From a virus: 32,674 nucleotides of DNA. Location of the stretch: UHGV virus genome UHGV-0193647; one strand, given 5' to 3'. Shown here piece after piece: positions 89 through 15,103 of the stretch. The position numbers and the translations under genes were made by a program. Positions within the stretch are counted from its first letter, which is position 1. Each line of letters begins with the position of its first letter. The notes beneath the pieces are model-generated. The model saw only the letters and a program-made list of their open reading frames with translations, was not told the DNA's origin and did not search any database.

Positions 89-1858
89 ATGACCATCACC
101 ACCGACACCACTTTATTAAACGACCCGCGACGCCAGGCGGCTTTGTTGTACTGGCAGGGGTTTTCCGTGCCGCAGATTGCCGAAATGTTGCAGACCAAAC
201 GCCCGACAGTGCAGAGCTGGAAACAGCGCGACCAGTGGGAGGAAACCGCACCGCTGAACCGGGTCGAAAGCACCTTAGAGGCCCGGCTGATTCAGCTCTA
301 CGCAAAGCCCAACCTGACACCCCACGATTTCAAGGTGGCGGATTTTCTGGCCCGACAGATGGAGCGCTTTGCGCGCATTAATCGCTATGGCCAGACCGGA
401 AATGAGGTTGACCTTAATCCCAATGTGGCCAACCGCAACAAAGGCGACCGCAAAAAGCCGACAAAGAACTTTTTCAGCGACGAGGCTATCGAGAAACTGG
501 AAGAGATTTTTTTCGCGGAGTCTTTCGAGTATCAGCTCCGCTGGCACCGCGCCGGGCTTGAGCACCGTATTCGCGACATTCTGAAATCGCGCCAGATTGG
601 GGCGACGTTCTACTTTTCCCGCGAGGCGCTGCTGCATGCGCTGAAAACCGGCCATAACCAGATTTTCCTGTCAGCGAGTAAGACGCAGGCGTATGTATTC
701 CGCGAGTACATCATTCAGTTTGCCCGCCGGGTCGATGTCGACCTGACCGGCGACCCGATTGTCATAGGCAACAACGGCGCAAAGCTGATTTTTCTCGGCA
801 CCAACTCAAACACCGCGCAGAGCCACAACGGCGACCTGTATGTCGACGAAATTTTCTGGATCCCCAACTTCCAGAAACTACGCAAAGTGTCGTCGGGCAT
901 GGCCTCACAAAGCCACCTGCGCAGCACCTACTTTTCGACACCTTCCACCCTGGCACACGGCGCTTACCCGTTCTGGTCGGGGGAATTATTCAACCGGGGC
1001 CGCGCCAGCGCCAGCGAGCGGGTTGATATCGATATCAGTCATGACGCGCTCGCCGCTGGCGTGGCGTGTCCTGACGGTCAGTGGCGGCAGATTGTCACCA
1101 TTGAGGATGCGCTCGCCGGGGGCTGTACGCTGTTCAATCTGGAGCAACTCAAGCGCGAAAACAGCGTCGACGACTTCCGCAATCTGTTTATGTGCGAGTT
1201 CGTTGACGACAAGGCGTCGGTGTTCCCGTTCGAGGATTTGCAACGCTGCATGGTCGACAGTCTGGAAGAATGGGAAGACTTTGCGCCGTTCGCCGACAAC
1301 CCGTTCGGCTCCCGCCCGGTCTGGGTGGGATACGACCCTTCGCACAGCGGCGACAGCGCCGGGTGTGTGGTGCTCGCACCGCCGGTTGTCGCTGGGGGCA
1401 AGTTTCGCATTCTGGAGCGCCATCAGTGGAAAGGCATGGACTTCGCTACTCAGGCCGAATCCATCCGCCAGCTCACCGAAAAATACAACGTCGAGTACAT
1501 CGGTATCGATGCGACCGGCCTCGGTATTGGCGTCTTCCAGCTGGTTCGCTCGTTTTATCCCGCCGCCCGCGATATCCGCTACACGCCGGAAATGAAAACC
1601 GCAATGGTGCTGAAAGCAAAAGACGTTATCCGCCGTGGCTGTCTCGAATATGACGTCAGCGCCACCGACATCACCACCTCGTTTATGGCAATCCGTAAGA
1701 CCATGACCAGCAGCGGGCGCAGCGCCACCTATGAGGCCAGCCGCACCGAGGAAGCCAGTCACGCGGACGTCGCCTGGGCGACCATGCACGCGCTGTTAAA
1801 CGAACCGCTTACCGCTGGCAGCGGCCAGGTAACATCATACATTCTGGAGTTCAACTGA
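89..1858 (+). CDS. P: terminase large (ATPase) subunit, gpP-like
   Basis: 599-aa ORF. From the internal Met, MTITTDTTLLNDPRRQAALLYWQGFSV... resembles the P2 gpP N-terminus (..RRQAxLLYWQGFSV..QSWKxRDQW). The 589-aa length from that Met matches P2 gpP (~590 aa). The first Met of the ORF is at 59. Confidence 0.85.
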   Translation: MTITTDTTLLNDPRRQAALLYWQGFSVPQIAEMLQTKRPTVQSWKQRDQWEETAPLNRVESTLEARLIQLYAKPNLTPHDFKVADFLARQMERFARINRYGQTGNEVDLNPNVANRNKGDRKKPTKNFFSDEAIEKLEEIFFAESFEYQLRWHRAGLEHRIRDILKSRQIGATFYFSREALLHALKTGHNQIFLSASKTQAYVFREYIIQFARRVDVDLTGDPIVIGNNGAKLIFLGTNSNTAQSHNGDLYVDEIFWIPNFQKLRKVSSGMASQSHLRSTYFSTPSTLAHGAYPFWSGELFNRGRASASERVDIDISHDALAAGVACPDGQWRQIVTIEDALAGGCTLFNLEQLKRENSVDDFRNLFMCEFVDDKASVFPFEDLQRCMVDSLEEWEDFAPFADNPFGSRPVWVGYDPSHSGDSAGCVVLAPPVVAGGKFRILERHQWKGMDFATQAESIRQLTEKYNVEYIGIDATGLGIGVFQLVRSFYPAARDIRYTPEMKTAMVLKAKDVIRRGCLEYDVSATDITTSFMAIRKTMTSSGRSATYEASRTEEASHADVAWATMHALLNEPLTAGSGQVTSYILEFN

Positions 1859-2901
1859 TGAGTAAATACAAAGGCCGCAAGCCACAGCCACAAAAGAGCC
1901 CGCGCAACATGAAAGACAGCGCGCCCCAAAAAATGGAGGCGTTTACCTTTGGTGAACCGAGCGCCGTGCTCGACCGCCGCGATATTCTGGATTACGTGGA
2001 ATGCGTCAATAATGGCCGCTGGTTCGAACCGCCGGTCAGCTTTAACGGGCTGGCGAAAAGCCTGCGCGCCGCCGTTCACCACAGCTCGCCGATTTACGTT
2101 AAGCGCAACATTCTGGCCTCAACGTTTATTCCGCACCCGCTACTGTCACAACAGGACTTCAGCCGCTTCGCGCTTGATTTTCTGGTGTTTGGCAACGCGT
2201 TTTTAGAGCTCCGAAAGAGTGTCACCGGTCGCCCGCTGAAGCTGGAAGCGTCACCGGCTAAATACACGCGGCGTGGTATTGAAGATGATGTCTATTGGTG
2301 GGTGCCGTCATTCGACCAGCCGCACCCGTTCGCGCCGGGATCCGTATTCCATCTGCTGGAGCCTGACATCAACCAGGAGCTGTACGGCATGCCGGAATAT
2401 CTCAGCGCGCTAAACTCCGCCTGGCTGAATGAAGCGGCGACCCTGTTCCGTCGCAAGTATTACCAGAACGGGGCTCATGCGGGTTACATCATGTATGTGA
2501 CGGACGCCGCGCAAAGCGGTACCGATGTTGAGGCGCTGCGCGATGCGATGCGCAGCTCGAAGGGGCTCGGCAACTTCAAAAATCTGTTTTTCTACGCACC
2601 GCACGGAAAACCGGACGGCATAAAAATTGTGCCGCTCAGTGAGGTGGCAACGAAAGACGATTTCTTCAATATCAAAAAAGTCAGCGCCGCCGACCTGCTC
2701 GACGCTCACCGCATCCCGTTCCAGCTGATGGGCGGCAAGCCGGAAAACGTCGGTTCGCTCGGTGACATCGAGAAGGTGGCAAAGGTTTTTGTCCGTAACG
2801 AGCTCATCCCGTTACAGGACCGGATGCGCGAGGTCAACGCCTGGGCCGGTCAGGAGGTGATCCGGTTCAAAAGTTACACCCTCGACACCGAAAGTGACTG
2901 A
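1858..2901 (+). CDS. Q: portal protein, gpQ-like
   Basis: 347 aa, compared with 344 aa for P2 Q. It follows P with a TGATG stop/start overlap, which suggests translational coupling. Confidence 0.85.
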   Translation: MSKYKGRKPQPQKSPRNMKDSAPQKMEAFTFGEPSAVLDRRDILDYVECVNNGRWFEPPVSFNGLAKSLRAAVHHSSPIYVKRNILASTFIPHPLLSQQDFSRFALDFLVFGNAFLELRKSVTGRPLKLEASPAKYTRRGIEDDVYWWVPSFDQPHPFAPGSVFHLLEPDINQELYGMPEYLSALNSAWLNEAATLFRRKYYQNGAHAGYIMYVTDAAQSGTDVEALRDAMRSSKGLGNFKNLFFYAPHGKPDGIKIVPLSEVATKDDFFNIKKVSAADLLDAHRIPFQLMGGKPENVGSLGDIEKVAKVFVRNELIPLQDRMREVNAWAGQEVIRFKSYTLDTESD

Positions 2902-3089: not shown

Positions 3090-3246
3090 TGCCCGCTTCG
3101 TGAGTCGGAATTAATGCAGATGCAACAGGCCTCCCGATCCGCGCCAGTCCTGGCGGCAAGTATCAAAATATAAAGGTAAACACACATGCAAAATGATGCA
3201 TCAAACGGATGCATTAACTTGACTGAGATAGAGACAAACTTTAATA

Positions 3247-4047
3247 CTATTTCATAAGCCCTATAAACGCGGCAAACATACTTCCCAGACCACCTATTGC
3301 AGCAAATAGAGTAGCCCAAAACATACTCCTCTGGCTGCGTATGTTTTCTGTATATCGCTGCTCTGTTTTATTAAAATTAGCCAAGGTATTTACCGCTTTT
3401 CCTGTTGGCCTATACCCCAACTTAGTCCTTGAAATATCGCCATTTTCAACAAGTGAATCAAGGCACAGACGGAGTTCTTTTCTCATCCGTGATTGATCAT
3501 CGTGATAGACCCATAATCTACCAGCAACATCATTCATAACTAGTATTTCGCTGAATGGTCCTTCGCCTTCCTGCTCTCGATAGATTCTAACAACGGAGGC
3601 TAAAACAGTCATTGCATCAGTAATTTCTTGCTTACGCTGACGATAAAGAAACTTCTCACGGCTAAATCTTTTATTCTCTGCGTTAGCGAAGCGTCTAAAT
3701 CTTAGCAGCTTCAAAAAGCTCAAATCACTTAATGAATTAAATCTCAACTCATGCGCATGATAATAATAAATACCCGAAAAAGAATCACACTCAAGATCTT
3801 TTGGAAAGAGAATAGAATCAATATTGAATATATTTTCATTCGCATTCCATTTTTTAACTTTCACCTCACCATCCACAAACCTTTCGAATAAATAATCCGC
3901 ACCATCACGGTCTTTGATGTAAACAGAATACATGTTGTAATGTATGGCTTTTTCATATATCAAACTAATCCGCCCATTATCAGGGGTTCTCATCACATCG
4001 AAAATATCAAGATATTTTATAATGTTAATTTGTCTTTTATTTTTCAT
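3247..4047 (-). CDS. hypothetical AT-rich cargo protein, 266 aa, C-terminal transmembrane anchor (FWATLFAAIGGLGSMFAAFIGLM)
   Basis: Long ORF in a visibly AT-rich island between cos and tum, on the same strand as A and tum. I recognise no family. The only hydrophobic helix is at the extreme C-terminus. Confidence 0.6.
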   Translation of the reverse strand: MKNKRQINIIKYLDIFDVMRTPDNGRISLIYEKAIHYNMYSVYIKDRDGADYLFERFVDGEVKVKKWNANENIFNIDSILFPKDLECDSFSGIYYYHAHELRFNSLSDLSFLKLLRFRRFANAENKRFSREKFLYRQRKQEITDAMTVLASVVRIYREQEGEGPFSEILVMNDVAGRLWVYHDDQSRMRKELRLCLDSLVENGDISRTKLGYRPTGKAVNTLANFNKTEQRYTENIRSQRSMFWATLFAAIGGLGSMFAAFIGLMK

Positions 4048-4176
4048 TCTACGTACCCCTTTAAATTTACTTCAATACCATAGTTTGAGTGTAACTAACG
4101 CCTCGCATGCTCGTTGTTCAACCCCGCCGGCACTGAAAACAAGTTTCAGCACCGGCGGCGTTTGTAGCTATATTGG

Positions 4177-4908
4177 TTAATTATCGAGTATCGAAACGAT
4201 CTCACCGGTTCGCACGTCGACACGCGCCGCTACGGTCTGTTTTACCACCCCACCATAAGCATTAGTACCGCGAAACGTGGTTTTTACGATGGCATGTGGG
4301 TCTTTATTTAAAACCAAATGATAGACCGTTGAAACATGCTTGTAAGATGAATCATCATTCATGTTCGATTTTATTAGTTTTTCTAACGGACGATAAGAGC
4401 CATCCCAACCGCTAAAATTACCCTGAAATGCGTCAAGGTTGATTTTATTATTTAGAGATTGCGGCTCTTTCTCGAAGTCATTGAAACACCACCCCAACGC
4501 ATCACCGAGCTTTAATGCATCATCTTTAGTAAAAGTGTACTCACTCATACAAGCATAAAAAACATCAGTAGAGCTGGCCGGTACACTTTTGAAATCAACA
4601 TAGTTTTTAACGATATCGTGTCGGGCTTCTTTTGGCTCGTTGCGATATTCTTTGAGGGTTTTATCTGCATACTCAAACGTTGGCGTAGCCGGTTCCGCTT
4701 TAACCTCCAGCGCATCAGTTTTTTCAACAGGCTGGCTCTTTTCAGTCGGCCATAAAATTGAGCCAATAACGCCCAACGCGAGACAGCCACCAAGGTAAAC
4801 CGCACTGGAGCGTTTACGGTTCGGCATCCGAACCAGAGACGGCTTGATTAAACCCACTATAAAAGCAATAAAGAGTGCCAAAGATAAAAATGCTATTACG
4901 GTATCCAT
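4177..4908 (-). CDS. hypothetical AT-rich cargo membrane protein, 243 aa, N-terminal two-helix hairpin plus ~185-aa predicted periplasmic domain
   Basis: ORF begins MDTVIAFLSLALFIAFIVGLI ..KPSLVRMPNRKRSS.. AVYLGGCLALGVIGSILW and then a soluble domain. It is AT-rich. It occupies the P2 tin/old position. Confidence 0.6.
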   Translation of the reverse strand: MDTVIAFLSLALFIAFIVGLIKPSLVRMPNRKRSSAVYLGGCLALGVIGSILWPTEKSQPVEKTDALEVKAEPATPTFEYADKTLKEYRNEPKEARHDIVKNYVDFKSVPASSTDVFYACMSEYTFTKDDALKLGDALGWCFNDFEKEPQSLNNKINLDAFQGNFSGWDGSYRPLEKLIKSNMNDDSSYKHVSTVYHLVLNKDPHAIVKTTFRGTNAYGGVVKQTVAARVDVRTGEIVSILDN

Positions 4909-4990
4909 GATTTTCCTTTATGTGTAATCCCCATACAAAACAACCCCATGCTATCAAACAAGGGGTCGATGGTTGTACATTTTTCAGGAA

Positions 4991-5431
4991 CTAACGCCAG
5001 CTCTCATCTTCCCATACTTCCTGAAGGATACCGTCTAACGCTTCTCGGTCTGACTCCTGGTCGAACCCAACCAGTTCTACTCCGGTCATTGACCCTTTTT
5101 TTACCGTCACTCTCGTTGATGGGAAAATTGATTCTACGCGTCGGGTCAACTCGCACTGAAAAGCATCGACAACTTGCTGCCCGATTTTTTGGTCTTTATC
5201 CAACGTGATGTTAACCCTCACTTCGCCCCCTTTTTTTAATCTTTGTTCAACAGGAGCGGGAGCGAAAACAACTGAAAAAGAGTTGTTTTTCATCAAGTTC
5301 CCTCTCGCAATTTCCGCAATTAAATTCAAAGCAATTTCACGATCTCTTTCCTGACAAACACCCTCTGTCGTCAGACGCGCAATCATCTCGACCCGTTCAA
5401 TCATGACTTGCTCGTTTAACTCTCTATCCAC
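4991..5431 (-). CDS. tum: Tum-like SOS-inducible antirepressor (DinI-family C-terminal domain)
   Basis: C-terminus ..VRVNITLDKDQKIGQQVVDAFQCELTRRVESIFP..LQEVWEDESWR is DinI-like. A GTG start at 5431 has a GGAGG SD 4 nt upstream and gives 146 aa, the length of 186 Tum. An alternative ATG at 5404 gives 137 aa. The ORF track starts at 5512, but the LexA box lies inside that extension. Confidence 0.7.
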   Translation of the reverse strand: MDRELNEQVMIERVEMIARLTTEGVCQERDREIALNLIAEIARGNLMKNNSFSVVFAPAPVEQRLKKGGEVRVNITLDKDQKIGQQVVDAFQCELTRRVESIFPSTRVTVKKGSMTGVELVGFDQESDREALDGILQEVWEDESWR

Positions 5432-5451
5432 ACAACCTCCAATACGGGATA

Positions 5452-5467
5452 CTGTATAAATATACAG
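5452..5467. promoter_or_regulatory. LexA operator (SOS box) in the tum promoter
   Basis: CTGTATAAATATACAG is a perfect CTGT-N8-ACAG palindrome with an AT-rich centre. It lies ~20 nt upstream of the tum start, the same arrangement as the LexA-controlled p95-tum of 186. Confidence 0.8.
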
Positions 5468-5546
5468 TAGCACGTATCGATAAGAATATGAAAGAAAAAA
5501 GTTACGCCACAAAAGGTCGTATGTGCATGATATGGATATGAATTAG

Positions 5547-7619
5547 TTACAGTCTCAACTTAGTAACTGACGCTAACCCCGCGACTCGATTTAGGATTTG
5601 TCTGGCCTGCGCCCGGTGTGACGGTGCTGCCGGGAAAATTTCACCGGTTGATGAACCACGGCACCATTTGCCGTTTATGCAACTTTTTCCACCGGCCATC
5701 AGGTGCAGGGCCTCACCCCGGCTGATGGTTTCGCCGGTAGTGAGCCGAATCTCGTCTATTGTTCTGTCAATGGCTGCACTTTGTTTATCCGTTCCGTGGA
5801 TAAAATCACACCCGATGACCCGTTTTTTGTCCCTGAGTCTGGTCGTTAGCTTCCGCCTTTCACTTCGACTCAACGGTTTGGATAAATCCAGCTCCGGCGG
5901 ATCGCTTTCGCTTCCCGTACAGTTATTGACAGAACTCCGAGAGGGCGCAGGAGCGCCCTTAACGTCAACGGCCAAATCAACGGCACGCTTCGGCACAATT
6001 TTCCACTGCGTGAGACGAGTCATAATTGGGGTATCTGCACCGATGGCAGAGTCGTAAACGCCACGAATACAGACGGTCTCCTCGCCGTACTGATTAAACT
6101 CGGTACGTGGTTCATACAACGTGCGTACCTGCAAATCGTCGCGGCGAACAAACGGCCCGCCCTGGGCGTTAACGTAACCAGCCCAGTCACCGGCATCAGC
6201 AGCATCATGCACAGCAGCAAACTCAACACTCAGACCATGCGCGGTCTCAGTATCGGCAAGGCGGCGTAGTTCGCGATAGACCGTCACTGGCGCACCACCG
6301 ACAAATTGAAACTGACGAATATGCCAGCGCGCGGCCCAGGCAGAAACGGCGGGCGCGGTCTCTTTCAACAGTTCGCCGCTTTCGTCGTCGAGCTCGCCAT
6401 CAAGCGCATATCCGTCGATATTTTTCGAAATGTATTTAGCAACATAGCCGGTAGCGCTACCCTTCTCCGGGTCAATGGCTTCGCCGTGGAAACGTGCTTT
6501 TTTGGCTTTATCGCTTCTCAGTTCGTGGCGGTCTTCCTCCCACGCATAATCGCGAATAATGAGGCGCACGCGCTCGACGTCTTCCGGCAACATGAACATA
6601 AGCATGTGCCAGTGAGGCGTTCCGTCGTGATGAGGCTCGGCAACACGGATGCCGAAAATGCGGATTTCTTCCCGATGTAGTTTGGCACGAATGCGTGCCC
6701 AAAGGCCGGTGAGATAACTCTGCGTGTCCGACGGGCTGGCTCCGTTCCATTTGCTGTTACGGTAGCCCGCTTTAGTTGTGGCGTGATATTTAGACGGCGC
6801 GGTCAGGGTGTAAAACTCCCCGACATAACCGAGTTCATTGCAGATATTTTCAAACCCACGGATGCGGGTCATCAGCTCGCAGCGGCGTATCGCAGGGTTA
6901 GCGACCGAACCGTCATATTTTTCTATCAGGCTGATTCGGTTGCCGTCTTCGTCTTCGAGATCCAGCCCCTTGAGAAACTCACGCGTGCGGCGCTTCTGCT
7001 CGCGCCAGTCTGTCACGCAGTTTTTACTCGCGTAGGCGTGCTTTTTCTTGCTGACGTTGCCGACTGCAATTTGTAGATGTTCGCGCCAAGCCGACGCGAC
7101 ACGACGCAGACGATTACGCCACCATGACTCAGTAAACATACGGATTACTGCGGGGGCTATATCATCTTTGTTGAAGTATTTATTTGCCACGCGCTCCCAA
7201 TGGGGAGGGGTGATATTGAATTGCAGAGAAATAAAACCAGCGTGCATGTACCAGGTGTATAGCGTTTTGAGCTCTCCAAAACCTGAGTCATCAATATTTG
7301 CCAGCTCAGAACGAATGAAATTCGCAATGTCACCGGCGAGCAGGTCAACATCGGCGCGCGACATATCAGGGAGGCGGTTATACCTGGCGACCATATTGAC
7401 CATGCGGGATGCCAGATATTGCATAAGCCGGGTATCAAAATGACCGCCAAAAATAGCGGCAGACGCATCGGAGTTGATGCCGTTGACCTGATACTTTTTG
7501 GTAACTAGCTCAATACGCGGCAATGCCTTTTTGCAGAAATTGACTAAAAAGGCATTGGCTCGTTGGCTACCCTGGCTTTTCTCCAGCGCATCAGCCTTAC
7601 GGAACACATCAAAGCGCAC
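5547..7619 (-). CDS. A: replication initiation endonuclease (rolling-circle), gpA-like
   Basis: 690 aa. Contains ..ATGYVAKYISKNIDG.., the active-site tyrosine motif of P2/186 A. Its position and size match 186 A (~694 aa). Confidence 0.85.
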   Translation of the reverse strand: MRFDVFRKADALEKSQGSQRANAFLVNFCKKALPRIELVTKKYQVNGINSDASAAIFGGHFDTRLMQYLASRMVNMVARYNRLPDMSRADVDLLAGDIANFIRSELANIDDSGFGELKTLYTWYMHAGFISLQFNITPPHWERVANKYFNKDDIAPAVIRMFTESWWRNRLRRVASAWREHLQIAVGNVSKKKHAYASKNCVTDWREQKRRTREFLKGLDLEDEDGNRISLIEKYDGSVANPAIRRCELMTRIRGFENICNELGYVGEFYTLTAPSKYHATTKAGYRNSKWNGASPSDTQSYLTGLWARIRAKLHREEIRIFGIRVAEPHHDGTPHWHMLMFMLPEDVERVRLIIRDYAWEEDRHELRSDKAKKARFHGEAIDPEKGSATGYVAKYISKNIDGYALDGELDDESGELLKETAPAVSAWAARWHIRQFQFVGGAPVTVYRELRRLADTETAHGLSVEFAAVHDAADAGDWAGYVNAQGGPFVRRDDLQVRTLYEPRTEFNQYGEETVCIRGVYDSAIGADTPIMTRLTQWKIVPKRAVDLAVDVKGAPAPSRSSVNNCTGSESDPPELDLSKPLSRSERRKLTTRLRDKKRVIGCDFIHGTDKQSAAIDRTIDEIRLTTGETISRGEALHLMAGGKSCINGKWCRGSSTGEIFPAAPSHRAQARQILNRVAGLASVTKLRL

Positions 7620-7767
7620 GCACTCAGGCTGAAGTGAGAGTGCTTACGCGCACGCAGCAAAGCCGCAATCATTCGATCGCGGCGATACTCTTCATCATAG
7701 GTAAGGTATGGGCTGGCTATTGCCGACCGTGGAGCATTCCACGGATAAGCGTAAGAAATCCCCACGC

Positions 7768-8241
7768 TCACCCCTTCACTGAAACGGACTGGTCATATTC
7801 CCATACACCATCTGGGGAAACTAAAGCGCCCCGCGACATACCTGTTTGAGGGTCACGGAAAACCGCCAGCCCAATAGGGTGTAGAATTTCATTATTAATA
7901 CGGATGATAAGACCGCGTTCGCTTAATTCATTCCACGATATCCAGTCACAACCTCCAATTTTTTCGCTTTGTTCCATGACGTTAAATGCATCGCCACATA
8001 GCGCGCTGATACGCTTAATCTCTGCGGCCATTTCCTCAATTGAGGTGATGGTCGACTGCTGGATGTGATGATGAATCAGGCCGGAAATAAGTTGCTCGAT
8101 TTTCGGATAGTAGCCAATAGTATCGAGCCACTCCTCGCCAGCTTTACGGCCGCTTTTAGCGACCTTTTTCTCGCTCAGAATGAATTGATACTGGTCGCTG
8201 GTAATAACCCACTTACCGCCAATCTCGATATTTAGGCTCAT
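7768..8241 (-). CDS. hypothetical early protein (157 aa)
   Basis: ORF in the early operon upstream of A. No family recognised. Confidence 0.5.
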   Translation of the reverse strand: MSLNIEIGGKWVITSDQYQFILSEKKVAKSGRKAGEEWLDTIGYYPKIEQLISGLIHHHIQQSTITSIEEMAAEIKRISALCGDAFNVMEQSEKIGGCDWISWNELSERGLIIRINNEILHPIGLAVFRDPQTGMSRGALVSPDGVWEYDQSVSVKG

Positions 8242-8652: not shown

Positions 8653-8879
8653 TAGTGCAGCTCCTGAGATTCGTTTTCGTAGCGGGTGGCTTCGCGGCGC
8701 AGCAGTTCAGCGGCTTCTTTACCGCTCATATCTTTGTTTGCGATATGGGTTGCCAGAGCTTCAAGGCGGATAGAAACAGCGAGAGCGCGACCTTTACGCT
8801 CTTCTTTTCTGACCTCATTAAGTAGGTCATTCAAAAATGTTTTTCCGAATTTACGTGGTAACTCTAAACAAAGACTCAT
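8652..8879 (-). CDS. hypothetical early protein (75 aa)
   Basis: Small ORF in the early operon. Confidence 0.4.
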   Translation of the reverse strand: MSLCLELPRKFGKTFLNDLLNEVRKEERKGRALAVSIRLEALATHIANKDMSGKEAAELLRREATRYENESQELH

Positions 8880-8945
8880 CGTTCAATCTCCTGATTTCTG
8901 GCAATAAGAAGCCTGGCGGGTTTACGCCATTAATTACGGGTTTAT

Positions 8946-9317
8946 TTAATTAGCTAAAAAGCATTCATGGATTGAAATATGCCGGGGTAAAATCCCACCC
9001 CAGCGGGAAATTTTATTCATTGACGCAATAATCAGCTTGCGGCGGTTCATATCAAAATATTCATATGGTTTACCGACTTCATCAGAGCTAAACGCACCCG
9101 GATTATTTCGGTTAGCAAGCGTTAAAACCACAAACTTAAAATCTTCATCAAGCTTATTGAAATTACGCAGTGCCTTATTTTCTGTTGCTTTCAGTTTTTG
9201 ATGAAACCGTGCGAAACACTCTTCGCCGGTCATGGTCTTCGGTTGCTCAGTAGAACAATCTGCATTGCTAAAAAGCTTGCTCGCCTGGGTGTCATGAGCT
9301 GAAATTCTTTCGTTCAT
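8946..9317 (-). CDS. hypothetical early protein (123 aa), in the positional slot of 186 dhr
   Basis: ORF overlaps the next gene by 4 nt. No family recognised. The dhr analogy is positional only. Confidence 0.5.
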   Translation of the reverse strand: MNERISAHDTQASKLFSNADCSTEQPKTMTGEECFARFHQKLKATENKALRNFNKLDEDFKFVVLTLANRNNPGAFSSDEVGKPYEYFDMNRRKLIIASMNKISRWGGILPRHISIHECFLAN

Positions 9318-9520
9318 TTTGCCCCCATTAATGCATTTAAAATCCGCTTAACCGCAGAGACTTTTTTTGCTGTTAAGCCGTTCAACAATTCGGACTGAGA
9401 GCTGCAAGGGTGCCAGCGCTGGCCGTCGCTACCCATTATCCAGCCGTGCCCGTAGTGCATGGATGGGCTACGTTTTTTGAGCAGAGAGGCGAGTGACGGT
9501 TCGTTAGTCAACATAAGCAC
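9314..9520 (-). CDS. hypothetical small protein (68 aa), in the positional slot of 186 fil
   Basis: ORF immediately after cII. The fil analogy is positional only. Confidence 0.4.
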   Translation of the reverse strand: MLMLTNEPSLASLLKKRSPSMHYGHGWIMGSDGQRWHPCSSQSELLNGLTAKKVSAVKRILNALMGAK

Positions 9521-10061: not shown

Positions 10062-10325
10062 TTACGCACCGATGACAAGTTGGAACCGTGAATGACCTAA
10101 AGCCTTACGCAGCTGCTCTTCTTTCCAGCGGGCGTAATAAATACGAATCGGGCCACCTGCTTTCTTGCAGCCTTTACGGATGGTGCGGGGTTCGATTGGT
10201 ACACAAGGGTTGTCGCCGGTTGTCCAGCGATAAGCAGTACGTTCAGAAACACCCTCGAGCTCTGCGAACTGTTGCAGAGTAACGATAGGTGCAGGCACTT
10301 TGATGATTGCGATTTCAGAAGCCAT
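10062..10325 (-). CDS. apl: Apl-like excisionase / lytic-switch regulator (HTH)
   Basis: From Met at 10325: MASEIAIIKVPAPIVTLQQFAELEGVSERTAYRWTTG... This is an 87-aa HTH protein, the size of 186 Apl, and it is divergent from cI. Confidence 0.75.
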   Translation of the reverse strand: MASEIAIIKVPAPIVTLQQFAELEGVSERTAYRWTTGDNPCVPIEPRTIRKGCKKAGGPIRIYYARWKEEQLRKALGHSRFQLVIGA

Positions 10326-10457
10326 GTTGCATGATTCCCATTTTGACAATGTTTGCAATCAATGGCCTCTGTTTGCCAACTTCTGCCACTGATTGCCCGA
10401 ATTAGCAACGATACTAATGCTCGATTGAATATTAGTAAATACCCAAAGGAATAAATT
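10326..10457. promoter_or_regulatory. lysis-lysogeny switch region (pR for apl-cII, pL for cI, CI/Apl operators expected)
   Basis: 132-bp AT-rich gap between divergent apl and cI. It holds repeated tgtttgc motifs and a TTGATACT-TGATACT direct repeat at the cI start. In 186 this region holds face-to-face pR and pL. Confidence 0.5.
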
Positions 10458-11033
10458 TTGATACTTGATACTCAGGTGAATAACGACGAGTTACTGGATA
10501 GAATTTGTCAAGTATATGGTTTTACTCAAAAAATCCAGCTAGCCCGGCACTTCAATATTGCAGCCAGCTCCCTACAAAATCGCTACACTCGTGGCACTGT
10601 TTCTTATGACTTCGCCGTGCAGTGCGCCTTAGAAACTGGAGCAAGCCTACTATGGCTACTTACGGGGCAAGGCTCTCAATATGATGGCAAACCGTCCCCA
10701 ACGGATCCGAAAACGATAGACTCATTCACTCTTAGTGATGGAAAGCTCGAAGAAAATTCACCATTGAGTATTGACTCCGGTTTTTTTAGCAAGCAAATGT
10801 CAAAAGGCATTGCTGTTCGCGCCGATGGAAAGCTGCACTTCATAGAGCAAGATGCCTCACTTTCTGATGGCCTTTGGTTGGTTGATATTGAGGGGGCTAC
10901 CAGCATCAGAGAATTGACGCTCCTACCAGGCAAAAAGCTACACGTTGCGGGCGGAAAAGTACCGTTTGAATGTAGGATTGACGAAATAAAACTGATTGGC
11001 CGTGTAATTGGTATATATAGCGATGTCAACTAA
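10458..11033 (+). CDS. cI: CI immunity repressor (186 CI-like)
   Basis: 191 aa. ..LLDRICQVYGFTQKIQLARHFNIAASSLQNRYTRGTVSYDFAVQCALETGASLLWLLTG.. and a C-terminus ..LWLVDIEGATSIRELTLLPGKKLHVAGGKVPFECRIDEIKLIGRVIGIYSDVN. I recognise both as 186 CI-like. The start is TTG, with an AAGGAA SD 6 nt upstream and an in-frame TAA just before it. Confidence 0.8.
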   Translation: MILDTQVNNDELLDRICQVYGFTQKIQLARHFNIAASSLQNRYTRGTVSYDFAVQCALETGASLLWLLTGQGSQYDGKPSPTDPKTIDSFTLSDGKLEENSPLSIDSGFFSKQMSKGIAVRADGKLHFIEQDASLSDGLWLVDIEGATSIRELTLLPGKKLHVAGGKVPFECRIDEIKLIGRVIGIYSDVN

Positions 11034-11065
11034 TCCCTATATCCACGATGAATAAGGAAACTATC

Positions 11066-11596
11066 ATGGATACTATAATTCCGATTTTGTTTTTAGGTCT
11101 GTCTTTTTTTTCGATGATTACTTATTTTAAGTCACCGGAAAAATTAGCAATGCGAGTGGCTAAAGGAGTTGCAGCTTTTCTTGCTTCTATTGCTGCCTTT
11201 GGGGCCTTTTTAGGTGGTGATTATGCACTATCACTTCCTATCGCCTTTATTGTTCTTTTCCTGACAATTCGCCAGTTAAAAACATCTAAAACCCTATCAT
11301 CTGTAACACATCAACCAATCTCTTTTAGCACACCAAAAGATCCTATAAGTAAGCGTAAGCCCGATAGTGAGTTTAGAAATATTTCATTTGAGTACACAGA
11401 CTTAAATGGCAATTCAACTCATAGAGAAGTTGATGTAAAAGAGATTACTGAACAACACATTACAGGATATTGTCATTCACGCAGGCAACTAAGGACCTTC
11501 CGTTTAGACCGAATTGATAATAGTGAGATTGTCGTCCGTGATACGGGCGAGTTAATCAATGTCTATGACTGGATTGTCCAGCTATATGGAGAATGA
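11066..11596 (+). CDS. membrane-anchored WYL-domain protein (3 predicted TM helices plus C-terminal WYL-like domain)
   Basis: AT-rich ORF between cI and int. The ORF track starts at 11048, but the Met at 11066 has an AAGGAA SD. TM helices: IIPILFLGLSFFSMITYF, VAAFLASIAAFGAFLGG and LSLPIAFIVLFLTI. C-terminal ..ISFEYTDLNGNSTHREVDVKEI..GYCHSRRQLRTFRLDRIDNSEIV matches the WYL-domain hallmark (..Y.d..G..t.R.v.P......w.l.ayc..r...RtFRldRI..). Confidence 0.6.
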   Translation: MDTIIPILFLGLSFFSMITYFKSPEKLAMRVAKGVAAFLASIAAFGAFLGGDYALSLPIAFIVLFLTIRQLKTSKTLSSVTHQPISFSTPKDPISKRKPDSEFRNISFEYTDLNGNSTHREVDVKEITEQHITGYCHSRRQLRTFRLDRIDNSEIVVRDTGELINVYDWIVQLYGE

Positions 11597-11605
11597 GGTT
11601 TACTC

Positions 11606-12604
11606 ATGACCGTTCGAAAAAACCCCGATGGCGGTTGGATTTGTGAACTCTACCCAAACGGTGCGAAAGGCAAGCGCATCAGAAAGAAATTCGCCACTAA
11701 AGGCGAGGCGCTGGCGTTCGAACAGTACACCGTTCAAAACCCTTGGCAGGAAGAAAAGGAAGACAGGCGCACATTAAAAGAGCTGGTTGACTCATGGTAT
11801 AGCGCTCATGGCATTACCCTGAAAGACGGCTTAAAACGCCAGTTAGCGATGCACCATGCTTTTGAGTGTATGGGCGAACCTCTTGCACGCGATTTCGATG
11901 CACAGATGTTTTCCCGCTACCGAGAAAAACGGTTAAAAGGTGAGTACGCCCGTTCAAACAGAGTGAAAGAGGTATCGCCTCGCACGCTTAATCTTGAGCT
12001 GGCCTATTTCCGGGCAGTATTCAATGAGCTAAACCGTCTCGGAGAATGGAAGGGGGAAAACCCACTGAAAAATATGCGCCCATTCCGCACAGAAGAAATG
12101 GAAATGGCCTGGCTAACTCACGACCAAATTTCGCAACTGCTCGGAGAGTGTAAACGGCATGACCACCCTGATTTAGAAACCGTGGTAAGAATTTGTCTCG
12201 CCACTGGCGCACGGTGGTCTGAGGCCGAGAGTCTGAGAAAAAGCCAGCTTGCGAAATACAAAATCACATACACCAACACGAAAGGCAGAAAAAACCGCAC
12301 CGTCCCAATCAGCACAGAGCTCTATGAGTCTCTGCCTGATGATAAAAAAGGCCGGTTGTTTAGTGATTGTTATGGCGCGTTCCGGTCAGCTCTGGAAAGA
12401 ACAGGCATCGAACTACCAGCAGGACAGCTTACCCATGTTTTGCGCCACACCTTCGCCAGCCACTTTATGATGAATGGAGGCAACATTCTTGTTCTACAGA
12501 GGATATTAGGACATACAGATATAAAAATGACCATGCGTTATGCTCATTTTTCCCCTGACCATTTAGAAGATGCTAAACTATTAAATCCATTGGTAAAAAA
12601 ATGA
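11606..12604 (+). CDS. int: tyrosine integrase (186/P2 family)
   Basis: 332 aa. The N-terminus MTVRKNPDGGWICELYPNGAKGKRIRKKFATKGEALAFEQY.. is 186 Int-like. The C-terminal catalytic region has ..HVLRHTFAS.. and ..LGHTDIKMTMRYAHF.., the R-H-R-Y signature. Confidence 0.9.
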   Translation: MTVRKNPDGGWICELYPNGAKGKRIRKKFATKGEALAFEQYTVQNPWQEEKEDRRTLKELVDSWYSAHGITLKDGLKRQLAMHHAFECMGEPLARDFDAQMFSRYREKRLKGEYARSNRVKEVSPRTLNLELAYFRAVFNELNRLGEWKGENPLKNMRPFRTEEMEMAWLTHDQISQLLGECKRHDHPDLETVVRICLATGARWSEAESLRKSQLAKYKITYTNTKGRKNRTVPISTELYESLPDDKKGRLFSDCYGAFRSALERTGIELPAGQLTHVLRHTFASHFMMNGGNILVLQRILGHTDIKMTMRYAHFSPDHLEDAKLLNPLVKK

Positions 12605-13374
12605 CGACACTAGAAAAAGCAATATATAATATATCTAAACACAAGGCTATCTCTATTTTCCTTTTTATGGTAATAGCATTGATATTCCTATCACCTTTAT
12701 TATTATATTTTCATCAGTTCCATAACAACCTATCATCTCAACCTGAAAAATGGTCATTTTTTGGTTCTTTCATTGGTGGGATTTACGGACCTATAGTTAC
12801 ATTAATTAGTGTATTTGTATTAGTAATCACAGTCATAGAAATCAATCAATCAAATAAAGCAAGTATTAACGAGGCAAGAAACACGAATTATGTAAGTGAG
12901 TTGATAACCTTATCAGAAATCCTTAATAGATCTATAGATAATAACATTTACATTAAAAATGACAGAAATTATTTTTTCAACAACCTAAACAACATTGCAT
13001 TTAATAAAATAAAGAGCAAGCCCCATGTAAATAGTGAAGTGATTTTAAAGACCTGTACACGAAAATTCGTAGAAAATGAGAGGGTTTTATTTGAAAATGA
13101 GATTGATATTCTGCATGAAATCTTTTCTAGAATTGAAAGCATCCCTAACGCGGAATTAGCTGAGAGGGCAAAAGGTATTTTTAGGGGGGTTATACGTAAT
13201 AATGAAAGGTTTTGGATTGAATGTTACATACGTCGTTTTAGGGAAGACCTTGTTCCCTACCTATTGTCATGGAACACGTTTAGCAAGACCCCGCTAAAAC
13301 TTCTAAGTCTAATACCTGAACCATCGCAAGAAGATGGCGATAAAGTGGCGATGGAAATGGCGGATAATGGGTAA
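12601..13374 (+). CDS. hypothetical AT-rich membrane protein (257 aa), translationally coupled to int, adjacent to attP
   Basis: The ATG overlaps the int stop (ATGA). Two N-terminal TM helices: ISIFLFMVIALIFLSPLLLYF and FFGSFIGGIYGPIVTLISVFVLVITVI. Then a ~170-aa soluble domain. Very AT-rich. No family recognised. Confidence 0.6.
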   Translation: MTTLEKAIYNISKHKAISIFLFMVIALIFLSPLLLYFHQFHNNLSSQPEKWSFFGSFIGGIYGPIVTLISVFVLVITVIEINQSNKASINEARNTNYVSELITLSEILNRSIDNNIYIKNDRNYFFNNLNNIAFNKIKSKPHVNSEVILKTCTRKFVENERVLFENEIDILHEIFSRIESIPNAELAERAKGIFRGVIRNNERFWIECYIRRFREDLVPYLLSWNTFSKTPLKLLSLIPEPSQEDGDKVAMEMADNG

Positions 13375-13445
13375 TCGCTGGCAAACAAAGGCAATCTATA
13401 TCAATGATAAATAACGCAAACTATTGATTTTCAGTTGTTCCTACA

Positions 13446-13494
13446 GGAACTCATAATCGCTTGGTCGTTGGTTCAAACCCAACAGGGGCCACCA
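13446..13494 (+). other. attP: attP core: 3' portion of a tRNA-Ile2(CAU)/Met-like gene (anticodon loop to CCA), not a complete tRNA
   Basis: ..aactcataatcgcttggtcgttggttcaaacccaacaggggccacca has a CTCATAA anticodon loop, a GTTGG/TTCAAAC/CCAAC T-arm, AGGGGCC and ACCA. It closely resembles the 3' half of enterobacterial tRNA-Ile2 (ileX/ileY). No matching 5' acceptor strand or D-arm is upstream. It lies between the int-side ORF and B, as attP does in 186. Confidence 0.7.
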
Positions 13495-13522
13495 AATTTT
13501 AGCTTTAAAATCATATAATTAA

Positions 13523-13548
13523 GCCACTCACGCGAGTGGCTTTTTTCT
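13523..13548 (+). terminator. rho-independent terminator (end of cI-int lysogenic operon)
   Basis: gccactcacgcgagtggc hairpin followed by tttttt. Confidence 0.6.
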
Positions 13549-13610
13549 TATATCGTTATTGAGTGGCGATAAAATGGCGGTGCATTTTTTACCGCCACTT
13601 TTCAGATCAC

Positions 13611-13633
13611 ATAAAAAACCCGCTCGCGGCGGG
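13611..13633 (-). terminator. rho-independent terminator after B/ogr (end of late tail operon)
   Basis: On the minus strand, a CCCGCCGCGAGCGGG hairpin is followed by TTTTTTAT, just downstream of the B stop. Confidence 0.6.
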
Positions 13634-13650
13634 CATTTTATGAAATTTTT

Positions 13651-13869
13651 CTAGAGCCATAGCGGGCGCTGACCACCAACTGTCGGATGAGGCGGGGCCG
13701 GGATTATCGTTCCTGGCGTAACAATAAAACGTTCCACCGATTCCATCGTTACAAACGTACAGCTGCAATTTATGTTAGTGCATTGATGGTAACGCTCTTT
13801 GGTATTCTCACTTAGATAGCGACTGGTGCGCGCATGTGCCGCGTGCTGGCATTTTGGACAATGGAACAT
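13651..13869 (-). CDS. B: Ogr/Delta/B-family zinc-finger late-gene transcription activator
   Basis: MFHCPKCQHAAHARTSRYLSENTKERYHQCTNINCSCTFVTMESVERFIV.. has the CxxC-N22-CxxxxC pattern of the 72-aa Ogr/186 B family. The ORF track starts 5 codons upstream. Confidence 0.85.
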   Translation of the reverse strand: MFHCPKCQHAAHARTSRYLSENTKERYHQCTNINCSCTFVTMESVERFIVTPGTIIPAPPHPTVGGQRPLWL

Positions 13870-13909
13870 TTCACACCCCAACAATTCACATAAAGTGAAT
13901 TAATGATAC

Positions 13910-15103
13910 TCATTTTTTCACAATTTGAGAATAGCTATATTCTTCCTCCCCTTCAGTCCCGTACTCGACATCCAACAATCTAACCTCAAGCTCTAAACTC
14001 GTCGTAAAGCCACTATTACTCAGAGAGTGCATAACCTTCGTGATTGTCCATGACTGCTCGTCTATGACGCGCTTAAAGCCTGAAACCTGCACAGGTGTCT
14101 CTGGGTAGAGGTCGGCGCGTCCTGTCGCAAGCCTGATAGAAAACTCAGCAACACCACGTTGCAGTTTGTCCCATTTGGCCTGGGCGGCTCGCATGGCCTG
14201 CGCTTTGGTTGAAAAAATTGTCGTTAGGGCAAACACGTTGTCATCCTCGCCGACCATGTATTCACCCTCCCTGGCTTCCGGCGTCTTCACCGTTTTTTTC
14301 TTCGTTACCGGCTTGGCTTTGGGGTGCTGTAGCGCGCGTAAATGCTGCTCTTTGGGTTTGCGTTTTAACGCAACCTTTTGTTTTTGTGGCTTCGGGTCTT
14401 TGGTGTGTAACCATTTTGCCGTAACGCCGGTATATGCCCCACGGTCAGCAATGGAAAACTGATGGCGGTCGCCATCGCTGCGGGTGATCGTGACCTGCGG
14501 AATGGCTTTTCCGCTGGCTGTAACCCCACGACCGGCTTTGAGGAAAAGTAACTTTCCCGCTTTTACCGAAACCTCACCGCCGTTTCGCTCGGCGAGCCGC
14601 GTCAAAAATTTGGCATCCGATTCCTGTGACTGGTCGATATGCGGAATTTTTATTCCGGCCAGCTCCGGTATAACGCTCGACGTCAGTTTGTTACGTGTCG
14701 CTATCGCTGCCACGATCTCGCCGAGCGTCTTGTCATGCCAGGACTCTTCCCTACGTGAGTTAAGCGTCCCCCGAAAATCGGCGCTACGGGCGCGGATTGT
14801 CACCGTATCTGGCGCGCCATGATGTTCAACCTCATCGACGGTAAAACTTCCCTTACCAATTAACGCAAAGCCTTTCCACCCGAGGTAAAGCGTCAGTACC
14901 GCACCGCGTAACGGCAGTTCGACCAGCCCGTCAGCATCATCAAGCTCGATGTCGAGCTGGTCGGCCTCGAATCCGCGATTGTCTGTCATGGTCAGACTCA
15001 TCAACCGACTACTGATGTTGCCGGTAATATCTTTGCTGTCGAGCATCAGCATAAAATCGGGCGTCAGTACGCCACCCGCATTCAGATTCAGCATATCCAG
15101 CAT
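13910..15103 (-). CDS. D: tail protein gpD-like
   Basis: 397 aa. It is the last large tail gene before B/ogr, as in P2/186. Its start overlaps the U stop. Confidence 0.8.
   Translation of the reverse strand: MLDMLNLNAGGVLTPDFMLMLDSKDITGNISSRLMSLTMTDNRGFEADQLDIELDDADGLVELPLRGAVLTLYLGWKGFALIGKGSFTVDEVEHHGAPDTVTIRARSADFRGTLNSRREESWHDKTLGEIVAAIATRNKLTSSVIPELAGIKIPHIDQSQESDAKFLTRLAERNGGEVSVKAGKLLFLKAGRGVTASGKAIPQVTITRSDGDRHQFSIADRGAYTGVTAKWLHTKDPKPQKQKVALKRKPKEQHLRALQHPKAKPVTKKKTVKTPEAREGEYMVGEDDNVFALTTIFSTKAQAMRAAQAKWDKLQRGVAEFSIRLATGRADLYPETPVQVSGFKRVIDEQSWTITKVMHSLSNSGFTTSLELEVRLLDVEYGTEGEEEYSYSQIVKK

Follow-up and report, generated by a model that had tools for sequence, protein, structure and literature searches.

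What is the role of an AT-rich membrane protein gene that lies between the integrase gene (int) and the attachment site (attP) of a temperate phage, and how did it come to stand there? The question is raised by the UHGV virus genome UHGV-0193647, a stretch of 32,674 nucleotides (nt), referred to as a whole as the window. It is the genome of a temperate phage that is 186-like (Eganvirus-type), and its attP is intact. The gene concerned is the open reading frame (ORF) at 12601-13374 on the plus strand, named ORF257 after its predicted product of 257 amino acids (aa). The original prediction regarded it as a candidate for exclusion or abortive infection. According to the reading preferred here, which is held with moderate confidence and draws on analogy, ORF257 would be a single-gene accessory cassette of 186-like phages, most likely with an anti-phage function of the AbiC/AbiP type, either abortive infection or exclusion.

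ORF257 and its membrane module

ORF257 is a real gene and not a chance ORF, since the family to which it belongs is conserved (56 invariant columns across 13 close members), it evolves under purifying selection, and its AlphaFold2 model has a mean predicted local distance difference test (pLDDT) score of 93.2. The ratio of non-synonymous to synonymous divergence (dN/dS) is 0.10-0.23 in all pairs of relatives tested, and the invariant residues include G59/G60 and a NERFWLEC motif. The ORF list and the homologues agree on a membrane-anchored protein of 257 aa in the slot between int and attP. Its deviant composition, pointed out in the original prediction, is equally clear: the GC content is 0.327 (0.31 at third codon positions, GC3), compared with 0.475 for int and 0.524 for the entire window. 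Relatives of ORF257 have a GC content of 0.32-0.37 in all lineages.

Hydropathy analysis places two hydrophobic helices at residues ~17-37 and ~53-80, and the ~175 aa beyond them form a soluble part, in agreement with the two N-terminal transmembrane (TM) helices and soluble domain described before. The AlphaFold2 model, for which 65 family sequences served as input, is all-helical. Its elements are a short helix at the N-terminus and TM1 (15-40), a loop of seven residues, a long helix (48-113) that comprises TM2 and a stalk, and a helical bundle (122-235). Two parts can be distinguished. The N-terminal module (aa 16-95; 12646-12885, plus strand), delimited with hydropathy, HMMER, hhalign, and PADLOC, contains TM1, a loop with an LS motif, and a glycine-rich TM2 with the pattern W-x2-FG-x3-GG-x-YGP. 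The C-terminal domain (aa 122-235; 12964-13305, plus strand) is all-helical, carries the conserved motifs FENE and NERFWLEC, and is predicted to be cytoplasmic. Under the positive-inside rule, the N- and C-termini of the protein would both lie in the cytoplasm, and only ~10-15 residues are predicted to face the periplasm. No resembling fold was found when the model was compared with solved and viral predicted structures, and a profile search of the sequences in the PDB with the ORF257 family gave no match.

The original prediction saw no recognisable family in the protein. This stands for the standard libraries, as ORF257 matches no family above threshold in Pfam, NCBIfam, or PADLOC. The PADLOC check proposed earlier (PADLOC-DB v2) returned 0 families and no match at E ≤ 1, and thus no recognised defence system. 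For the N-terminal module, the statement does not hold. In PHROGs, three families of unknown function match the N-terminal region of ORF257 only. With a profile built from the close family, HMMER retrieved 2,335 clusters at E ≤ 1e-3 from a set of 1.84 billion representative proteins. Of these clusters, ~60 are full-length relatives of 220-260 aa, while the rest share the N-terminal module alone. The shared motif is Y-F-x2-F-H-x2-LS-x5-W-x2-FG-x3-GG-x-YGP. Six of the 105 profile hits that were scanned pass the Pfam family PF16872 (putAbiC), which is described as "putative phage abortive infection protein"; the best E-value is 2.9e-20. In these proteins the Pfam match covers the C-terminal part, and the N-terminal part is the shared module. 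They also match the PADLOC models of AbiP (E 1e-8 to 1e-10) and AbiC (E 3e-6 to 3e-9), and in the protein P0108 the AbiC model spans the N-terminal module itself. An hhalign comparison of the 65-sequence family with eight AbiC/P-type proteins gave a probability of 99.65% and an E-value of 4.4e-25 over 206 columns, with the signal mostly in the N-terminal part. The label DUF4760, carried by the proteins P0001 and P0093 in UniRef, was not reproduced; Pfam DUF4760 gave no match at E ≤ 10, nor at E ≤ 1 for ORF257.

On these profile comparisons, the membrane module of ORF257 is homologous to that of the AbiC/AbiP group. Membership of the full-length protein in this group is not established, and the C-terminal domain is not demonstrably related. 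The remote homology search suggested earlier has thus produced a link for the N-terminal part and no firm link for the C-terminal domain. ORF257 and the AbiC/AbiP proteins are alike in being encoded by single genes of similar size and in having the N-terminal anchor motif Y-F-x2-F-x3-LS-x5-W-x2-FG-x3-GG-x2-P. In both, a long stalk helix and then a helical bundle come after the anchor. When one AbiC/P-type protein was modelled with AlphaFold2 (pLDDT 75.5), the elements stood in the same order as in the ORF257 model, with an additional beta-hairpin that ORF257 lacks. They also differ in setting, as the AbiC and AbiP genes are found on Lactococcus plasmids, whereas ORF257 is an int-coupled prophage gene of Enterobacterales.

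According to a review, AbiC has two TM helices and AbiP has one, and in AbiP the TM segment is required for the phenotype while the soluble domain binds RNA (PMC13064643). The same review gives no fold-based function for AbiC or AbiP, which agrees with the outcome of the fold searches for ORF257. Because its membrane module is homologous to that of AbiC and AbiP, the idea that ORF257 acts in abortive infection is strengthened by analogy.

A protein of this architecture may also be considered for superinfection exclusion at the membrane, in which ORF257 would block the entry of phage DNA without killing the cell, in the manner of P22 SieA, T4 Imm, and HK97 gp15. Exclusion proteins are typically small prophage membrane proteins. 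ORF257 is a predicted inner-membrane hairpin protein in a lysogenic operon position, and its sequence indicates no enzyme or toxin domain. This explanation is nevertheless considered rather improbable. AbiC and AbiP, the sole characterised relatives of the N-terminal module, act after DNA entry (PMC13064643). Furthermore, the large conserved domain of ORF257 is predicted to be cytoplasmic, with few residues exposed to the periplasm, which fits intracellular sensing better than the blocking of a channel.

A cassette between int and the P arm

The int gene (11606-12604, plus strand) encodes a tyrosine integrase with the Pfam domains Int_N and Phage_integrase, which is 97.6% identical to the Int of phage 186 by tblastn; at the DNA level, the identity of the int region to 186 is 92%. 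ORF257 follows directly. The exact ORF257 protein is present in 137 blocks of the assembly collection, and word-seeded searches found ~30 relatives, all from Enterobacterales apart from a partial N-terminal match in Pseudomonas soli. A tblastn search of ORF257 against 50,697 phage records gave no match. The match in P. soli (L013, 8001-8696) is a 231-aa protein that has only the N-terminal two-helix module in common with ORF257. Its gene stands alone on the opposite strand of a lambdoid-type prophage, within the early region and with RecT/YqaJ and a cI-like repressor nearby, which is a typical accessory position.

The gene neighbourhood of the family was studied with a locus search based on an alignment of 13 family sequences. 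Besides the window, 24 loci were examined, each with a full-length relative that is 21-99% identical to ORF257. They come from Klebsiella, Enterobacter, Hafnia, Rahnella, Brenneria, Citrobacter, IMG/VR contigs, and metagenomes, and one of them is a remnant in Pectobacterium polaris. Twenty-three of the loci have the family gene immediately 3' of a 186-type int, at the prophage end, with Int identities of 59-100%. The 24th locus (L024) is the P. polaris prophage remnant at tRNA-Ile2 (6596-7820). It contains, in this order, an intact tRNA-Ile2, the terminator-bearing sequence of the P' side, a degenerate stretch from the int 3' end (6822-6989), an intact family gene (7001-7672), and a degenerate tRNA 3' fragment. 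In this decayed prophage, the ORF257-family gene is the one gene that has stayed intact, and the rest of the phage is lost.

The original prediction that the int-attP junction holds variable cargo is borne out. Phages with 96-98% identical Int (186, EtG, L001, and L002) carry other cargo in this slot or none at all. The slot is occupied by Orf69 in 186 and is empty in EtG. One Escherichia coli prophage has DUF6602 together with a SEC-C protein on the other strand, and another has a gene for a protein of 482 aa. ORF257 is accordingly not conserved core content at this junction in all 186-like phages, as the content of the slot varies. Orf69 of 186 (CP69) resembles ORF257 in its location between int and the P arm and in its strand, and differs in that it is an unrelated, repeat-rich soluble protein of 83 aa whose gene stops before the arm sites.

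Evidence of exchange comes from a comparison with the Enterobacter prophage L005. Int is 95% identical between the two, whereas ORF257 is 50% identical. The synonymous divergence (dS) of int is 0.36, while that of ORF257 is saturated at 2.7. Along the DNA, identity falls from ~0.95 to ~0.5 at 12500-12600 and recovers partially, to 0.64-0.79, from 13306 onwards. Judged by the drop of identity at the end of int, the saturated dS of ORF257, and the differing content of the slot in close phages, ORF257 behaves as an exchangeable cassette between conserved int and attP flanks, rather than as a gene that diverged in place.

The 3' end of ORF257 overlaps attP. The core of attP, at 13449-13494 on the plus strand, duplicates 46 nt from the 3' portion of tRNA-Ile2 (anticodon CAU). 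It was compared with the intact tRNA of L024, corresponds to the feature annotated in 186 as "tRNA-Ile truncated", and begins 75 nt past the ORF257 stop codon. Rfam gave no match in 10300-14000, and ARAGORN found no complete tRNA, the 3' fragment alone being present. The annotation of 186 describes Int arm-type sites with the consensus YAYCGCCAYTY, of which three stand on the left side of the core and two on the right. In the window, the three sites of the P arm are located as direct repeats at 13332-13365 (plus strand), and the two sites of the P' arm, which form the direct repeat family D1/D2 and correspond to the two right-hand sites of 186, are located at 13561-13582 (plus strand). The three P-arm sites lie within the last 14 codons of ORF257 (13332-13374), and these codons encode ...DGDKVAMEMADNG*. 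The earlier description of ORF257 as abutting attP was therefore right about the adjacency, but the gene does not merely abut the site, as its last 14 codons hold three P-arm sites.

An explanation for this overlap is offered by phage EtG, which has no cargo in the slot (L004, 3005-3046). In EtG, int itself reads through the P-arm sites and ends in ...SGDKVAVEMANNG*, with its stop codon at the same position as that of ORF257. The last 13 codons of EtG int, which encode the C-terminal tail of Int, are thus also the three Int binding sites of the P arm. The int gene of the window ends earlier than that of EtG (…NPLVKK*), and the arm-site DNA forms the end of ORF257 instead. Since EtG int covers the identical sites and ends at the matching stop codon, it follows that an EtG-type int received the cassette in its 3' end. 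By this event int acquired a new stop codon, and ORF257 took over the old int tail. Family members beside other integrases stop before the arm and are devoid of the tail. The tail is thus conserved because Int binds this DNA; the protein itself may not require it. Cargo spliced in at the end of int can take over the last codons, which double as Int binding sites, and leave attP undisturbed, which bears on how hotspots are built and on the prediction of prophage boundaries.

The proximity to int might also be taken to mean that ORF257 is an integration or excision factor. The gene is constantly adjacent to int, its start overlaps the int stop codon in most lineages, and three P-arm sites fall within its 3' end. 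Even so, such a role is judged to be extremely unlikely. Phages with 96-98% identical Int and the same attP, namely 186, EtG, and the E. coli prophages, do without ORF257. Entry of the cassette near the end of an EtG-type int accounts for the overlap with the arm sites, and lineages with other integrases have a family gene that stops before the arm. Moreover, a membrane protein is an unlikely cofactor of recombination.

The lysogenic operon and the TM-WYL gene

The junction between int and ORF257 consists of seven A followed by ATGA (12595-12604, plus strand). The ATG of ORF257 (12601-12603) overlaps the stop codon TGA of int (12602-12604), exactly as noted in the original prediction, and this ATGA overlap suggests that ORF257 is translationally coupled to int. 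In most lineages of the family, the overlap between stop and start codons measures 1 to 17 nt; in two lineages, 81-82 nt separate the genes. In the int frame, the junction reads A AAA AAA TGA, a classic slippery heptamer, and ORF257 lies in the -1 frame. An Int-ORF257 fusion through -1 slippage was considered and is not favoured; the heptamer is not kept in other lineages, which have for example GAAATAATGA or GGAATATGA, and it is probably incidental.

The lysogenic operon would begin with cI (10458-11033, plus strand; Pfam Phage_CI_repr and Phage_CI_C). From cI to 13521, a terminator scan of the plus strand found no terminator-like site except a weak 5-pair match inside cI (10582). The next such site is the hairpin (13521-13542) of an intrinsic terminator at 13521-13549 (plus strand), past the attP core. 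It is homologous to the 186 terminator and is the counterpart of the "predicted terminator of lysogenic operon" annotated past the core in the 186 record. Judging from the common strand, the stop/start overlap, the terminator scan, and the annotated 186 operon, ORF257 probably shares a transcription unit with cI and int, which would be read from pL in the prophage, and homology with that operon makes its expression in lysogens likely. As for an internal promoter, 11 promoter-like matches were counted in ORF257 compared with 8.4 expected, which is the level of AT-rich sequence, and the candidate was dismissed.

Between cI and int lies a second cargo slot, which in the window is occupied by a gene (11048-11596, plus strand) for a protein with two N-terminal hydrophobic helices and a WYL domain (Pfam E 4.5e-7), here called TM-WYL. 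The original prediction proposed that TM-WYL and ORF257 form a two-gene sensor/effector system bracketing int. Both are AT-rich membrane protein genes in one operon of the window, and WYL domains are ligand sensors in several defence systems, as reflected by PADLOC WYL matches. The two genes are distributed independently, which contradicts the pairing, and it is now regarded as very unlikely. Among the loci examined, TM-WYL and ORF257 occur together only in the lineage of the window (L017-L019). The ORF257 family is found without TM-WYL in all its other lineages (L005-L011, L014-L016, and L021-L035). In L014-L016, ORF257 is even 99% identical, and cI abuts int directly. Conversely, TM-WYL is found without ORF257 (L020); in Yersinia phage vB_YenM_201.16, a 68% identical TM-WYL lies between cI and int, and there is no relative of ORF257. 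Unrelated cargo fills the cI-int slot elsewhere, namely a 185-aa bPH-SHOCT-like protein with a SHOCT-like C-terminus in L030-L035, and a 369-aa protein together with DUF4325 in L021-L023. The cI-int and int-attP slots are thus independent of each other.

Proposed function and hotspot context

If ORF257 is an anti-phage gene, the following course of events can be envisaged. It would be the last gene to be transcribed in the lysogenic operon (cI, TM-WYL, int, ORF257). Ribosomes finishing on int would provide a low level of translation by way of the ATGA overlap. The protein would insert as a helical hairpin into the inner membrane, its two ends presumably on the cytoplasmic side. Its cytoplasmic helical domain may sense a product or a consequence of an incoming phage, although the nature of this trigger is speculative. 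The glycine-rich two-helix module could then act at the membrane, e.g., by oligomerising and damaging the barrier, and so halt the infection, which is likewise speculative.

A number of features would be in line with such a role: the constant position after int, the operon layout, the cassette behaviour, the low GC content, the location in a hotspot, the homology to AbiC/AbiP, and the retention of the gene in L024. Lambda rexAB and sieB and P22 sieA are accessory membrane protein genes that are expressed with the repressor in the lysogen and act against other phages. ORF257 probably shares this operon position. Nevertheless, no similarity in sequence or fold to these proteins was detected, and ORF257 is a single gene in contrast to the RexA/RexB pair. 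Taken as a whole, ORF257 is a plausible anti-phage candidate by analogy.

Several observations weigh against this reading. When the C-terminal halves alone were compared by hhalign, the similarity between the ORF257 family and the AbiC/P-type proteins was weak (E 0.002-0.007, probability 6-13%), albeit in the expected register, and an iterative hidden Markov model search did not connect the C-terminal domain of ORF257 to putAbiC. PF16872 was not found at E ≤ 10 in ORF257, P0001, P0022, or P0093. Likewise, ORF257 and its ~60 full-length relatives match neither Pfam putAbiC nor AbiC or AbiP in PADLOC, while the controls P0064, P0108, and P0143 do. The shared two-helix anchor could be a generic module without a shared function. 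A lactococcal AbiC-like protein with 38% identity to AbiC conferred no resistance to the phages tested (PMC11381338). Finally, the int-att slot holds only 3% of the defence systems of P2-like phages (PMC13586616), and not all hotspot cargo is defence.

These points lend some weight to an accessory role outside defence. ORF257 might serve lysogenic conversion of the envelope, be a selfish or addictive element, or hitch-hike without any benefit in a recombination-prone slot. Such a role would be compatible with the fact that ORF257 matches no defence model and no known fold, that hotspots also carry other cargo, and that the AbiC-like protein was inactive in the lactococcal screen (PMC11381338). 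It is considered unlikely, though worth keeping in view. The purifying selection seen in all pairs tested, the position and coupling to int kept across deep divergence, the retention of the family gene in a decayed prophage, and the homology of the module to known Abi proteins argue against it.

A broader and more tentative proposal, for which the likelihood is put low, is that the ORF257 family is an unrecognised single-gene defence family specific to 186-like phages. The two-helix module, which occurs in ~2,300 clusters, mostly with other C-terminal domains, would be a general membrane effector with interchangeable cytoplasmic sensors. Coupling to int would set a low constitutive dose, and since ORF257 extends through the three arm sites, Int bound to the P arm could modulate expression.

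Hotspots of P2-like phages were described by Rousset et al. 2022 (PMC9122126) and in NAR 2026 (PMC13586616). The int-att position is a minor defence hotspot in these phages, with 3% of the systems compared with 8% for int-primase (PMC13586616), and a cI-int hotspot is known from Vibrio P2-like phages. The window resembles these arrangements in having low-GC variable cargo between conserved phage genes, with both the int-att and the cI-int slots filled. It differs in two respects. ORF257 is not a defence system recognised by PADLOC, and rather than being a free-standing island, it is joined to the phage operon by the stop/start overlap and reads into the Int arm sites. The int-att hotspot as such has been described before.

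If it is active, ORF257 would be a compact and easily cloned single-gene defence candidate that is missed by PADLOC, Pfam, and NCBIfam and is found in common prophages of Klebsiella and Enterobacter. It would connect a large number of two-helix membrane proteins, so far uncharacterised, with the AbiC/AbiP group, which has long been known but is unsolved in its mechanism, and would provide an enterobacterial model of that group. If it is inactive against phages, ORF257 would be an ordinary hotspot gene.

On the far side of attP, the window continues on the minus strand with a gene for an Ogr/B-type zinc-finger activator (13651-13884) and tail gene D (13910-15103). Low GC content is also found elsewhere in the window. 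At 8800-9320, there is a dip to 0.378 around an ORF of 123 aa (8946-9317, minus strand) that belongs to the early region, lies upstream of cII/fil, and matches nothing in Pfam or PADLOC. Another block of low GC content (0.35-0.45) extends over 3200-5520, between the portal gene (1858-2901, plus strand) and replication gene A (5547-7619, minus strand). The interval from the portal gene to gene A is the main defence hotspot of P2-like phages. Two ORFs of this block (3247-4047 and 4177-4908, both on the minus strand) have no Pfam or PADLOC match, and a third (4991-5512, minus strand) encodes a DinI-domain protein that may be a Tum-like antirepressor.

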